A stretch of DNA of 23,314 nt from a virus. Its lineage: Duplodnaviria > Heunggongvirae > Uroviricota > Caudoviricetes. The translations under genes were made by a program, and so were the position numbers. Positions 3,881-6,627 of the stretch are shown piece after piece. The notes beneath the pieces are model-generated. The model did not search any database, was not told the origin of the DNA, and saw only the letters and a program-made list of their open reading frames with translations. Within the stretch, counting starts at the first letter, position 1; the number at the start of each line of letters is the position of its first letter. The stretch covers positions 64,001 through 87,314 of the IMG/VR virus record IMGVR_UViG_3300046002_003930; one strand, given 5' to 3'.

Positions 3881-3912
3881 AAAGGGCGGTGGATTGCTCC
3901 ACCGCCTTTTTT
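3881..3912. terminator. Bidirectional intrinsic terminator between convergent nrdJ and endolysin
   Basis: GGCGGTGGA-TTGC-TCCACCGCC (3885-3906, 9-bp stem) is followed by TTTTTT on + and preceded by an A-rich tract that gives the U-tract on -. Confidence 0.9.
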
Positions 3913-4510
3913 ACTTATATAACGCTGCTTGGAAGATTAGTGCTTCCTTTGCAATCTTATCGGCTTTGTCTGTACCGTTGATAATTTTACGGCACTTTGT
4001 AAAGGCTTCTAGAGTTCCTGGCGCCTCCGTTAAGTATGTGCTCAACGATTTTCCAGTAAACCAACCCTGCTCCATACCCTTAACAAGGATACTAGATGCG
4101 ACTTTGGGCTGCATAGCTAGGTCTGGGTTATTTACCAATGGAACATCAAGCTCTTTCTCTGCTTTCGCGTAGTTAACTTTCCAAGTTAGCTGCACATAAC
4201 CTCGTCCACAGTATTTTGCCCCGTCACCTGGAGCAGTATTTCCATATTGCCGCGCACGTGCAGGATTTTGCCCAGTAACGTCGTACATTTTAGTGTAGTA
4301 ACTAATGCCACCATACTCTTTGATAGGTTGCATAGTCCCCGCAGTTTCATGGAAAGCAGTTGCTAGTGCGTAGGCAATATAAGCTTTAGGCCATTTAGCT
4401 GCTTCACCAGCCACTAAAATAGCCTCTAAACCTTCAACCTCTGAGCTTGATAAGGTTGGCCCGAGAAGTTTACTAGCCCTTAAGTGTGTATAAAAGTTTT
4501 CTTTATTCAT
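3911..4510 (-). CDS. Endolysin, glycoside hydrolase family 19 (lysozyme/chitinase-like), 199 aa
   Basis: AYALATAFHET...PIKE (catalytic Glu residues), YCGRGYVQLTWKVNY (GH19 signature), NPDLA, GWFTGK and RKIINGTDKA. Start set at ATG 4510 (AGGA-aaac-ATG; 8-nt overlap with the upstream stop). There is no N-terminal signal or SAR segment. Confidence 0.9.
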   Translation of the reverse strand: MNKENFYTHLRASKLLGPTLSSSEVEGLEAILVAGEAAKWPKAYIAYALATAFHETAGTMQPIKEYGGISYYTKMYDVTGQNPARARQYGNTAPGDGAKYCGRGYVQLTWKVNYAKAEKELDVPLVNNPDLAMQPKVASSILVKGMEQGWFTGKSLSTYLTEAPGTLEAFTKCRKIINGTDKADKIAKEALIFQAALYK

Positions 4511-4940
4511 GTTTTCCTGTTGAGTTGATAAGGCCAACCCCTCCTAATGTTGCTAATACAATGCATAGTATTAGATTTATCTCGGCAACATATAGACTTA
4601 AAAGTTCCGGCGTTAAAATACCGTCTTTCCACATAACAATTAAACTTGCATGTAATGTAAGTTGTGATATAAGCCCTCCTATTACTATAAGTTTCCACTG
4701 CTGTCTTTGTTTAAGCCACATATGATATACCCATAAAGCTAAAGGAAAGTCGAGTAGTGGAGATATTAGTGCTGTATTCAATAAACCAAATTTAAGAGTT
4801 AGTAACGTACAAGTAATAACGCTAGATAATAGAAGTATAGTTACCAGCAAAAGATCAGCGTTTTTAATCGGTGATACGTGAAAAGCATTGGCGGCTAGTG
4901 CTAAAACAATTAGCATTATTATGGAGTATGTTAATATCAT
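4503..4940 (-). CDS. Polytopic (4-5 TM) membrane protein in lysis cassette; holin, antiholin or accessory candidate
   Basis: Five hydrophobic stretches (about residues 1-20, 29-49, 54-73, 83-103, 113-137). ATGA overlap with the upstream gene and ATGAATAA overlap with the endolysin. Function is inferred only from position. Confidence 0.7.
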   Translation of the reverse strand: MILTYSIIMLIVLALAANAFHVSPIKNADLLLVTILLLSSVITCTLLTLKFGLLNTALISPLLDFPLALWVYHMWLKQRQQWKLIVIGGLISQLTLHASLIVMWKDGILTPELLSLYVAEINLILCIVLATLGGVGLINSTGKHE

Positions 4941-5590
4941 GGGTCACCTTCATGTGTTCCTAGCCCACATACATATATGTCTTGGCCTAATTTAAAGGAC
5001 CACTTAACGCCAACAAATCGCCCACGAACTCCGTGCGAGTTGGCAATTTTTTCATTTATTTCTATTACTTCACCAGACCTGTATGCTGCTTCATCGTTTA
5101 AAGCAAACTCAGCAGCAACTTCTGCGGGCCAGAGCTCAGCGTCCGTTCTACCAGCATAAGTTATAGGTTCTCCATTCAGATATTTATCTGCGTAGACCTG
5201 ACTAACTTGAATCATGCGGAATCGTCCAGTGCCTTCTCTGCGTTTAATCCACATAAGTCTTGGCATAGTTAATACAAAAGTTTCCAGTTCTTGAACTGTA
5301 ACGCTCTGACGATGCACCATTTCTTGTATCATATGAAGAGTTATCTCTTCAAATTTTAAGCCTGTGGCTGCCGCAAGTACGGCTCGTATTTGTCCAAGTT
5401 CTACTTCTGTTTTATGCGCACGCTCTCTTAGTCCATCAATAAGTTCCGCAGTTTTGGACTCTGCAATTTTGCGGCCTCGCCAATTAGCAGTTATCCAAGC
5501 AATAACTGCTGCTCCACCTGTAGACGCCAATGGCCACAGATCAACGATTTGACTCACTAAAGAAGGAGCCTGAGGAATAACATCGGTCAC
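4937..5590 (-). CDS. Holin-like membrane-anchored protein: one N-terminal TM, coiled coil, C-terminal PAS (PAS_4-like) domain
   Basis: GTG start. TM LWPLASTGGAAVIAWITANW is followed by RGRK, then a heptad-like helix. Residues about 102-214 match the PAS pattern: F..TMP.LMWIK, V+QVY, YAGRTDAELWPAEVAAEF..NDEAAYRSG..IE..E, R.RFVGVKW, VCGLG. Confidence 0.7.
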   Translation of the reverse strand: MTDVIPQAPSLVSQIVDLWPLASTGGAAVIAWITANWRGRKIAESKTAELIDGLRERAHKTEVELGQIRAVLAAATGLKFEEITLHMIQEMVHRQSVTVQELETFVLTMPRLMWIKRREGTGRFRMIQVSQVYADKYLNGEPITYAGRTDAELWPAEVAAEFALNDEAAYRSGEVIEINEKIANSHGVRGRFVGVKWSFKLGQDIYVCGLGTHEGDP

Positions 5591-5602
5591 ACTATACCCT
5601 AT

Positions 5603-5654
5603 ATTAGATTATCTAATTCCTAGTCATATATGACTGGTTACACTTACTATAGTA
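5603..5654. repeat. Three tandem DNA palindromes upstream of the lysis cassette
   Basis: ATTAGAT-T-ATCTAAT (5603-5617), AGTCATATATGACT (5622-5635, perfect 14-mer) and TACTATAGTA (5645-5654, perfect 10-mer). Confidence 0.85.
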
Positions 5655-5677
5655 GGGCGGGATAAAAATCCCGCCCT
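5654..5677. terminator. GC-rich hairpin after the tail-fibre operon; possible weak terminator or processing stem
   Basis: AGGGCGGGAT-AAAA-ATCCCGCCCT, a 10-bp perfect stem. No U-tract follows it on the - strand, so it is not a canonical intrinsic terminator. Confidence 0.45.
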
Positions 5678-5684
5678 TAGTAGT

Positions 5685-5957
5685 TTAAGGAGCCGGGAAT
5701 CCTGGCATACCTGGATTCGGTGTTCCATTCTGACGAGAAATCAGATTAGTTAGCACACGTTCAATCTCCTGTTCAAAGCTAAGCATCTGAGAGCCAACAC
5801 GCATTAGCGTATTATCAGCCTCTCCACCAATTTTGATTACTGTTGGAATATGGCCAGCAACGGCCTCATTAAAATCCTCGATAGCAACTAGTACTACGTT
5901 AAGGTCTGCGATTTGTAGGTCTAGAAGTTGAGTTTCTAGTTCTGCACGTTCTGTCAT
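5685..5957 (-). CDS. Small acidic helical hypothetical protein, 90 aa (possible fibre-assembly helper)
   Basis: AAGGA-9nt-ATG at 5957 (MTERAELETQ...), with a Pro/Gly-rich C-terminus. The track start at 6005 overlaps the upstream gene's stop and has no SD. Confidence 0.7.
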   Translation of the reverse strand: MTERAELETQLLDLQIADLNVVLVAIEDFNEAVAGHIPTVIKIGGEADNTLMRVGSQMLSFEQEIERVLTNLISRQNGTPNPGMPGFPAP

Positions 5958-5994
5958 TTTTGTTTTTCCTTGTATATTGGGGATAATTCCCCGA

Positions 5995-6627
5995 TTATGG
6001 ACCACCAGGATCGCCCGGGTCTCCTGCTCCTGAAGAGCCTCCGCTTAAACCAATAGTAAATGTATTACCTACTACATTTGAGGCACTTGAGGTGTTTTTA
6101 ATAGTGAAAGTTGCTGATGCCCCGGCTGCGCCTCCTGCTTCAAGACCGCTAACGTATAATACTGCTGTAATAGTTAATGTATCAGAAGCAGATACGCTGG
6201 GGATTGATATGGTACGGCTTATACCAGTAGTTTGTCCGGCTGAAAGTCTTTGCCAAGTACACCCATCAACATAAGAACCATTTCTAAAGATTTGAAACTC
6301 GAAATCCGCGGAATAACCGGAGGAAGTATTTACCTCTCCATTAGTAGTTTCAAAACTTAAAGTAATTGCACTAGTATTACCAGTCACTGTTAGAGTTTCT
6401 GTATCTGAAATTTCATCAGTTCCAGAAGCGCTAAGAGATGGGAAATCAATCCAATTCGGCACTAATGCCATATTTTTAGAGTAGAAGTCAGTTGGCATTA
6501 CTACACTTCCGGTTCGCTTACCCGCTAGACGTCTTACAGTAGCATTTGTAAGTTCTAGCGGGAGCGAAACTCCTGTTTCAGTTGAAATAGCAGCAAGTGT
6601 AATATTACCGGAGGCAGCTAAAGTCAT
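5995..6627 (-). CDS. Putative tail-fibre tip adhesin / receptor-binding protein
   Basis: The N-terminus MTLAASGNITLAAISTETG..L.LT...VRRLAG...G...MPTDFYSK is a recurrent phage anchor motif. It is followed by a Ser/Thr-rich beta-strand domain and a Gly/Pro tail. GGAGG SD and ATGA overlap with the S74-containing fibre gene. Confidence 0.65.
   Translation of the reverse strand: MTLAASGNITLAAISTETGVSLPLELTNATVRRLAGKRTGSVVMPTDFYSKNMALVPNWIDFPSLSASGTDEISDTETLTVTGNTSAITLSFETTNGEVNTSSGYSADFEFQIFRNGSYVDGCTWQRLSAGQTTGISRTISIPSVSASDTLTITAVLYVSGLEAGGAAGASATFTIKNTSSASNVVGNTFTIGLSGGSSGAGDPGDPGGP

Follow-up and report, generated by a model that had tools for sequence, protein, structure and literature searches.

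Does the lysis machinery of some phages include a protein with a sensor fold, and if so, what would such a protein do there? The question is raised by P0001, the first gene of a lysis operon in the window that was analysed here, i.e., the whole stretch of 23,314 nucleotides that forms the final 23.3 kb of the 87-kb IMG/VR virus record IMGVR_UViG_3300046002_003930, a linear fragment with an estimated completeness of 79%. P0001 is predicted to encode a membrane-tethered protein that ends in a PAS domain, and a first-pass annotation of the sequence had read it as a PAS-fused holin that would gate lysis in response to a signal. We propose instead that P0001 belongs to a two-component holin system as a regulatory or co-holin subunit, a reading to which we assign a rough probability of 0.55, and that its family is probably part of the lysis-timing machinery, not necessarily the hole-former. 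The strongest result is the linkage of the family to lysis genes: an endolysin lies at most two genes from the PAS gene in 12 of the 18 lineages that were examined, which belong to unrelated phages. The first-pass annotation had made its own reading depend on such a linkage of the homologues, and on this point it was not refuted. The operon and the parts of P0001 are located in the window as follows.

4937..5590, minus strand: P0001, first cistron of the lysis operon, a membrane-tethered PAS protein of 217 amino acids with a GTG start
5480..5548, minus strand: weakly hydrophobic, charge-free helix of P0001, residues 15-37 (hydropathy and homologue alignment)
5264..5479, minus strand: basic cluster and helical linker of P0001, residues 38-109 (alignment and AlphaFold2 model)
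4946..5263, minus strand: PAS domain of P0001, residues 110-215 (Pfam, model and Foldseek)
4503..4940, minus strand: P0002, second cistron, an orphan membrane protein of 145 amino acids with 4-5 transmembrane (TM) segments (hydrophobic segments)
3911..4537, minus strand: P0003, third cistron, an endolysin of the glycoside hydrolase family 19 (GH19) type (Pfam Glyco_hydro_19, 6.3e-10; phrog_181 endolysin, 3.2e-37)
3885..3906, minus strand: intrinsic-terminator-like hairpin with a T-rich tail (terminator scan), directly after the endolysin stop codon, where it ends the operon

The row of tail and tail-fibre genes on the minus strand stops at 5685, before the lysis operon and its leader. The stop codon of P0001 and the start codon of P0002 share the ATGA at 4940-4937, and the likely start of the endolysin is the ATG at 4510, which overlaps the end of P0002. 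Judging from these overlaps, P0001, P0002 and P0003 are a compact, translationally coupled three-gene lysis operon, so the earlier placement of P0001 as the first gene of a lysis cassette stands. The hydropathy profile of P0003 revealed no N-terminal hydrophobic, TM, signal-arrest-release (SAR) or signal segment. As for spanins, neither an open reading frame (ORF) of the lipobox or lipoprotein type in the window nor an Rz-type (Phage_lysis) match in the whole genome record was found. P0002 has no Pfam or PHROG match and its ESM Atlas match was uninformative; its relatives are six close homologues among 5.8 billion proteins and a 41%-identical version of 173 amino acids in the contig L008. In the two contexts seen, the window and L008, this gene lies between the PAS gene and the endolysin. 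The hydrophobic segments of P0002 contain the invariant polar residues D29, D64, Q93, H97 and N122, and the protein is the best holin candidate of the operon.

P0001 matched the Pfam family PAS_4 (PF08448) with an E value of 4.3e-5 and 24.1 bits against a cut-off of 23.1, in a match that spans residues 124-182 only; the same family was also matched by 15 of 58 diverse relatives (best E value 3.7e-7). Because the PAS_4 score of P0001 alone is thin, the structure was modelled. In the AlphaFold2 model, which was built with 26 homologues, residues 110-215 have a predicted local distance difference test (pLDDT) score of 85-95 and form two strands, four helices and three strands, with the strands at residues 112-120, 123-129, 176-183, 189-201 and 204-215 and the four helices in between. 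A Foldseek search of the PDB with this model returned 154 matches at E<=1e-3, the top 50 of which are of the PAS type (ARNT PAS-B, LOV, FixL and VqmA) with a probability of 1.00. The target TM-score was 0.60-0.72 for single-domain chains of ARNT PAS-B, short-LOV and a Leptospira PAS protein, while for FixL it was 0.65 with the isolated domain 1d06 and 0.34 with the longer dimeric chains. Based on the model and its structural matches, the PAS fold of P0001 is therefore genuine, in agreement with the first-pass annotation, which had recognised it from four motifs between residues 102 and 214 (nucleotides 5287-4949). All four are located where it had placed them, i.e., MPRLMWIK at 109-116, GRTDAELWPAEVAAEFALND at 147-166, RFVGVK at 191-196 and VCGLG at 207-211. 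Across 58 diverse members, the near-invariant polar residues of the domain are K116, Y145, D150, D166, E180 and K196. The chain stops after the PAS domain, and PAS_4 was the sole Pfam match of P0001 at E<=1, which is in line with the earlier claim that a kinase or other output domain is absent. P0001 had no match among the PHROGs at E<=0.1, and searching the PDB sequences with the profile of the family gave nothing meaningful.

The part of P0001 that precedes the PAS domain contains a sole hydrophobic segment at about residues 15-37, in which half of the residues are Gly, Ala, Ser or Thr and which is directly followed by RGRK. Both the single N-terminal TM helix and the RGRK had been noted before; to this we add that the helix is weakly hydrophobic, with a Kyte-Doolittle maximum of 1.45 over 19 residues. 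Among the close homologues, W19-P20 is invariant and a face of small residues, Ala-xxx-Ala-xxx-Ala (A27, A31 and A35), is conserved. The linker that follows has a 3-4 hydrophobic repeat (I51, L54, A58, T61, L65, I68, L72 and A75) as well as conserved positions at H59, T61, E62, Q67, R69 and an AATG motif. In the model, the first 78 residues form one long helix (19-76), which includes the hydrophobic segment, and further helices span 80-93 and 99-107, with a pLDDT below 50 over most of residues 1-78 and of about 66-78 over 81-110. The coiled coil proposed in the first-pass annotation is thus plausible because of the I51-A75 repeat, but the model has low confidence at these residues. The longer linkers of distant relatives match leucine-zipper families.

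The topology was predicted using the positive-inside rule by counting lysine and arginine (K/R) in the 15 residues that flank each side of the helix. P0001 has no K/R before its helix and four after it, and the K/R count is higher after the helix than before it in 78 of the 94 TM-bearing members of the family, with means of 3.5 on the C-terminal flank and 0.7 on the N-terminal flank. Because the bias follows the helix in this large majority, the family fits an N-out/C-in orientation with a predicted cytoplasmic PAS domain, as had been suggested from the RGRK of P0001.

The family is widespread. A word-indexed search retrieved 28 close homologues of P0001 with 56-99% identity, all of which are metagenomic and about 210-240 amino acids long, except for one fragment of 139 amino acids. 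A profile search of 1.84 billion cluster representatives returned 710 proteins at E<=1e-3 and 85 at E<=1e-10. Most of the small representatives have 190-290 amino acids and share the build of P0001: their N-tail is short and in many cases acidic, and it is followed by a single helix, a cluster of basic residues, a helical linker and the PAS domain. About a quarter of the small representatives listed have a length of about 140-160 amino acids and consist of the PAS domain without the hydrophobic helix. Among isolates, relatives were found only in the Cellulophaga phage phi14:2 and the Chryseobacterium phages MA9V-1 and MA9V-2; a tblastn search of the isolated phages with the distant members P0049 and P0088 gave no match, and scans of IMG/VR with the single proteins P0054, P0045 and P0055 gave no loci. 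A degenerate DNA pattern for GKxDxEIWP found 10 loci, four of which are family members. L032 and L035, two further loci with weak profile matches to longer PAS-containing proteins, were set aside. The PHROGs that are matched by family members are listed with unknown function. Single weak matches to the PHROGs 'holin' (phrog_20) and 'Rz-like spanin' (phrog_312), by one member each, were dismissed as probably reflecting TM and coiled-coil composition.

Two of the 18 lineages whose gene neighbourhoods were compared are contigs too short to inform (lineage G, L018/L019, and lineage R, L024). The endolysins that lie within two genes of the PAS gene belong to five classes, i.e., GH19 (the window, L004 and phi14:2), Phage_lysozyme (L006, L007, L008, L023 and L037), SLT (L021 and L022), GH108 (MA9V-2) and Peptidase_M15_3 (L025 and the contig of P0055). 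The backbones of the phages are unrelated and comprise a large phage with a T5-like tail as well as SU10-like, P2-like and crAss-like phages. In the window, the PAS gene is followed by the gene for the 4-5 TM protein and the GH19 endolysin; in L008, it is followed by the genes for a 5-TM protein, a TM protein of 72 amino acids and a Phage_lysozyme endolysin. In L004, the GH19 gene directly follows the PAS gene and overlaps it, and in the cultured, crAss-like Cellulophaga phage phi14:2, g078, annotated as 'PAS fold protein', is immediately upstream of the endolysin g077. Four contigs of SU10-like podophages share the order PAS, 2-TM protein, Phage_lysozyme and i-spanin-like protein, directly before the portal gene. 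L023 has a 3-TM protein, PAS, a protein of 73 amino acids, Phage_lysozyme and an i-spanin-like protein, and in L021 the SLT endolysin is immediately upstream of the PAS gene. In the P2-like myophage L022, the PAS gene follows gpX and precedes an uncalled 3-TM ORF; after this come the genes for an SLT endolysin that appears to have a signal sequence, an i-spanin-like protein and a protein of 112 amino acids, then gpR and gpS. In the Chryseobacterium phage MA9V-2, the order is GH108, lipoprotein, PAS, 1-TM protein and a lipobox protein with a C-terminal TM helix. L006, L007, L022, L023 and L026 each have a separate i-spanin-like gene.

The most constant neighbour of the PAS gene is a small multi-TM protein, the type of which varies and which is the immediate neighbour in the window and at least eight lineages. 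It has five TM segments in the window and L008, two in L006, L007, L009, L010 and L012, and three in L023, L026 and L022; moreover, in L003 and L011 a 2-TM gene precedes the PAS gene. This pairing is kept even where no endolysin is nearby. In L003, L011, L015, L016 and L017, the gene for a 2-TM protein of 89-101 amino acids runs into the start of the PAS gene. L026 carries, upstream of the PAS gene, the genes for an i-spanin-like protein, a lipoprotein and a 3-TM protein. In L009, a 2-TM gene comes after the PAS gene and a lipoprotein-like ORF is found further downstream, whereas in L029/L033 a lipoprotein-like ORF is immediately upstream. None of these contigs has a recognisable endolysin nearby.

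Proteins that consist of the PAS domain only (about 145 amino acids, no TM helix) occur in three of the lineages, where one adjoins the endolysin and two lie within two genes of it; these endolysins are of the Peptidase_M15_3 or Phage_lysozyme class. In two of these cases, L025 and L037, the overlapping next gene (L025:2647-2985 and L037:4425-4910) encodes a protein that combines a coiled coil with a TM helix at its C-terminus. These two proteins have an XhlA-like build and no Pfam match, and their helix (GGLGAAVAWL) is similar to the one at the N-terminus of the fused family. We do not claim from the likeness in GAAVAWL that the gene was split or permuted, as the helix would cross the membrane in the opposite direction.

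The 3-TM ORF of L022 (L022:4593-5027, plus strand) is holin-like, with Kyte-Doolittle values of 2.1-2.6, and was missed by the gene caller. The idea that the PAS protein replaces holin Y in this P2-like phage was withdrawn, because this uncalled ORF separates the PAS gene from the probable true start of the endolysin. The gene call also extends the SLT endolysin of L022 by about 75 implausible residues; its probable start is M76, with a basic N-region and a signal-like hydrophobic segment.

These features suggest how P0001 might act. The protein would have a short periplasmic N-tail, one weak helix, a helical linker that probably dimerises and a cytoplasmic C-terminal PAS domain, and the same translationally coupled late message would produce it together with the holin candidate P0002 and the soluble GH19 endolysin. 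Located in the inner membrane beside the hole-former as a co-holin or antiholin-type partner, it would set the moment at which the membrane is permeabilised for the endolysin, with the PAS domain as an input or interaction module. The analysis itself shows the architecture, the PAS fold, the layout of the operon, the topology bias and the linkage of the family to lysis genes; the lysis role as such, the action on the holin and not on the endolysin, and any sensing of a ligand or redox cue are what we infer here. That the PAS domain serves as a cytoplasmic sensor of a metabolite, of the redox or quinone state or of the energy state, and decides through the linker and the helix when the neighbouring holin is triggered, is a tentative extension that we regard as possible rather than probable. 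Signal gating had been put forward in the first-pass annotation as well; it is a conjecture there and here, as we found no signature of a ligand or cofactor.

Among characterised proteins, the best structural match in Swiss-Prot was E. coli ArcB, residues 73-265 of which (TM2, leucine zipper and PAS) align with residues 12-213 of P0001 at an E value of 6.9e-7. Both proteins combine a membrane anchor, a zipper helix and a cytoplasmic PAS domain, but in ArcB kinase, receiver and Hpt domains follow, whereas the chain of P0001 stops after the PAS domain. ArcB senses the quinone pool via Cys180 and Cys241; in contrast, the sole cysteine of the P0001 family, C208, is not conserved beyond the close subfamily. 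The fold matches of P0001 in the PDB also include VqmA of Vibrio cholerae (6ide_B). VqmA of the phage VP882 is a receptor with PAS and helix-turn-helix domains for 3,5-dimethylpyrazin-2-ol (DPO) and couples a small-molecule cue to the killing of the host. Unlike P0001, VqmA is a soluble transcription factor that acts on the lysis-lysogeny switch and not a membrane protein of a lysis cassette.

Closer parallels in architecture are found among lysis proteins that have a single transmembrane domain (TMD). The releasin gp25 of phage Mu, a protein of 99 amino acids with DUF2730 (PF10805), is tethered to the membrane with a predicted N-out/C-in topology, faces the cytoplasm, and releases a SAR endolysin in a phage that lacks a holin (Chamblee et al. 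2022, PMC9239132). The same authors found DUF2730 proteins near many endolysin classes, with and without SAR; most of these proteins are paired with non-SAR endolysins, where their function is unknown (PMC9239132). The P0001 family likewise has an N-terminal TMD, a predicted N-out/C-in topology, a helical cytoplasmic part and many endolysin classes nearby, and by eye the helix of gp25, LALWPYLLPVVAGGAVWAMRR, resembles that of P0001 in the window, VDLWPLASTGGAAVIAWITANWRGRK (LWP...GGA.W..RR). However, gp25 has no PAS domain, and it works with a SAR endolysin and without a holin, whereas the window has a non-SAR endolysin and a multi-TM protein. Since the window endolysin is not of the SAR type, the releasin function cannot be transferred to P0001. 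Residues 1-100 of P0001 did not match PF10805, and the signals from the wider family were all sub-threshold: the relatives P0022 and P0049 scored 15.3 and 15.2 bits, below the cut-off of 24.9, two of 58 members reached an E value of about 1e-3, hhalign of the N-terminal profile with the Mu-type profile gave a probability of 21.6% and an E value of 0.001 over 37 columns, and local hidden Markov models of the family and the Mu type gave collinear matches of 6-12 bits in both directions. Homology between P0001 and DUF2730 is therefore not established on the basis of these comparisons.

In cluster F1 mycobacteriophages, Pollenz et al. (2026, PMC13056207) showed that lysis is efficient and properly timed only if LysF1b, which has one TMD and an N-out/C-in topology, and the two-TMD LysF1a are both present. 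The single N-terminal TMD, the orientation and the multi-TMD partner in the cassette are shared with P0001, a likeness of architecture only. The host of these phages is mycobacterial, the partner has two TMDs and not the 4-5 TM segments of P0002, and LysF1b has no PAS domain; no sequence kinship was found, and a Pfam search with P0001 at E<=1 gave PAS_4 only. The lysis inhibition of T4, which the first-pass annotation had cited as a precedent, offers the concept of signal-controlled lysis timing. Holin T has about 218 amino acids, one TM segment, an N-in/C-out topology and a periplasmic soluble domain that takes the input, with RI and RIII as the antiholins (PMC11413866, PMC8385771). T is, like P0001, a one-TM lysis protein with a large soluble domain, but that domain is periplasmic, in contrast to the predicted cytoplasmic PAS domain of P0001; as the K/R bias is opposite, P0001 is not predicted to have the topology of a class III holin (T type). 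No sequence or Pfam relation to T and no RI- or RIII-like genes were seen. We could not confirm the earlier description of the periplasmic domain of T as 'GAF-like', a term that is absent from PMC11413866.

Several points weigh against P0001 as a regulatory partner of a holin. The functional evidence for P0001 consists of gene order and prediction, and this includes the stable insertion of a marginal helix (Kyte-Doolittle 1.45) into the membrane. In L004 and phi14:2, no further TM gene separates the PAS gene from the endolysin or adjoins either of them; here the hole might be formed by the PAS protein itself, or by a holin encoded at another place in the genome. That the TM partners are mutually unrelated is awkward for a specific pair of regulator and target, and LysF1b, despite its one TMD and N-out/C-in topology, acts as the main driver of lysis and not as a mere regulator (PMC13056207). 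The sensing role is further weakened by the lack of a recognised LOV, heme or FAD (flavin adenine dinucleotide) signature or any other cofactor or ligand motif in P0001, and by the fact that Cys208, its sole cysteine, is invariant in the close subfamily only.

Some of these points lead directly to the alternative that P0001 is itself the holin, a one-TM hole-former with a large soluble domain similar in size to the 218-amino-acid holin T of T4 in the opposite orientation, with P0002 as an antiholin or accessory protein. The PAS protein is the most conserved membrane protein of the cassettes, while its multi-TM neighbours switch family; in L004 and phi14:2 no other TM gene is next to the endolysin; and the invariant W19-P20 together with the Ala-xxx-Ala-xxx-Ala face suggests a specific packing of the helix. 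Moreover, LysF1b shows that a one-TMD protein with N-out/C-in topology can suffice for lysis that is sensitive to energy poisons (PMC13056207), and P0001 resembles holins in general in being small, having a TMD, albeit a single weak one, and being encoded in the same operon two genes before an endolysin. We nevertheless consider this unlikely, because about a quarter of the small representatives listed lack the helix and yet occur in lysis cassettes, the helix is only weakly hydrophobic where present, and a separate multi-TM protein of typical holin size is found in the window and most relatives. The argument that the PAS protein occupies the holin slot in L022 fails owing to the uncalled 3-TM ORF. 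For the same reasons, i.e., the 4-5 TM protein, the multi-TM neighbours of the relatives and the PAS-only homologues in the same slot, the label 'holin' given in the first-pass annotation was not justified. The PAS-only forms also indicate that the PAS domain can act outside a pore-forming helix. Quite improbable, in our judgement, is the absence of any lysis role, in which case P0001 would be a late-expressed, membrane-tethered PAS protein that serves host-state sensing, superinfection exclusion or virion assembly, and its position at the border of the structural and lysis modules would be a habit of genome organisation. The matching PHROGs of unknown function would agree with this, as would the L003/L011 lineage and L026, in which genes for a zinc-ribbon protein and thymidylate synthase follow and no endolysin is found within 4 kb; these lineages still have a 2- or 3-TM holin-like gene immediately upstream, however, and L026 additionally has a spanin-like pair. 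By a rough estimate, a gene picked at random from a genome with about 80 genes would lie within two genes of an endolysin in about 5% of cases, compared to the 12 of 18 observed here, and five endolysin classes on unrelated backbones are hard to explain by chance. In the window, P0001 is also translationally coupled to the holin candidate P0002 and to the endolysin.

An N-in/C-out orientation, in which P0001 would act in the periplasm like an i-spanin or like T4 T and its PAS-like domain would receive a periplasmic signal, appears very improbable. An N-terminal helix, a coiled coil and a C-terminal domain do make up the build of an i-spanin too, P0042 of L022 has the reverse charge bias with three K/R before the helix and one after it, and one member weakly matches the Rz-like spanin PHROG. 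On the other hand, the K/R cluster follows the helix in 78 of 94 members, the top structural matches, among them the ArcB module, are PAS domains that lie in the cytoplasm, and the forms without a TM helix carry no export signal. The five lineages with separate i-spanin-like genes have this role already filled. An identity of P0001 as an i-spanin of the Rz type was rejected because of the opposite topology bias, the lack of a lipobox ORF in the window and of a Phage_lysis match in the record, and the separate i-spanin-like genes of the relatives.

The timing of lysis sets the burst size and fitness of a phage, and its known controls are the holin clock, antiholins and lysis inhibition of the T4 and N4 type. 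In full-text literature searches, no publication turned up that describes a PAS holin, a PAS antiholin or PAS domains in lysis cassettes, and a search on PAS fold proteins in the context of Cellulophaga returned nothing relevant. The first-pass annotation had known of no characterised PAS-holin, which agrees with these searches; annotations of family members do exist in the databases, as it had allowed for, but they read only 'PAS fold protein' (g078 of phi14:2), 'regulatory protein' or similar, and none assigns a lysis role. The family is probably a one-TMD, cytoplasm-facing protein of lysis cassettes with a sensor fold and an undescribed part of the lysis machinery. It would extend the recently recognised one-TMD lysis proteins with N-out/C-in topology, i.e., the Mu releasin and LysF1b, by a further type. 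A widespread sensor fold at the cytoplasmic face of the membrane in lysis cassettes suggests that many phages may read an intracellular cue before lysis. If the sensor reading is true, hundreds of uncultured phages and the cultured phi14:2 carry a built-in, signal-gated lysis clock, which would be a second control of lysis timing that is mechanistically unrelated to lysis inhibition of the T4 type. In phi14:2, g078 offers a cultured member for direct genetics on Cellulophaga baltica, and a defined ligand would provide a natural switch for controlled lysis in biotechnology.

The region between the tail-fibre genes and the lysis operon contains a further element on the minus strand:

5655..5676, minus strand: GC-rich hairpin, read from the sequence, with a 9-bp stem (GGGCGGGAT / ATCCCGCCC) and the loop TTTT

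This hairpin is directly after the stop codon of the upstream gene and forms the border between the tail-fibre genes and the lysis operon; the terminator scan did not call it, and no T-run follows its stem. It belongs to the 94-nucleotide leader of the operon (5591-5684), in which two perfect palindromes, AGTCATATATGACT and ATTAGATAATCTAAT, come after the hairpin, and then a weak Shine-Dalgarno sequence (AGGG) leads to the GTG start of P0001. The leader may be a candidate late promoter, operator or translational control site for the cassette. Directly upstream of the operon, P0004 (window 5685-6005) encodes a helical, acidic protein of 106 amino acids with a Pro-rich tail, homologues of which are found at the same position in L004 (85 amino acids) and possibly L023 (93 amino acids). 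P0004 may be a tail-fibre chaperone or a further member of the cassette.

Additional observations were made in the related phages. In MA9V-2, the protein encoded two genes after the PAS gene (L002:5801-6433), which is annotated as hypothetical, has 210 amino acids, an N-terminal lipobox (FTFGC) and a C-terminal TM helix, which is the build of a unimolecular spanin. The SU10-like contigs also encode, a few kb upstream, proteins of the Acb2/Tad1-hairpin family, an anti-CBASS/anti-Thoeris sponge family, which were recognised using Pfam:

L006:2371-2679: Acb2/Tad1-hairpin gene (Pfam)
L007:2006-2272: Acb2/Tad1-hairpin gene (Pfam)

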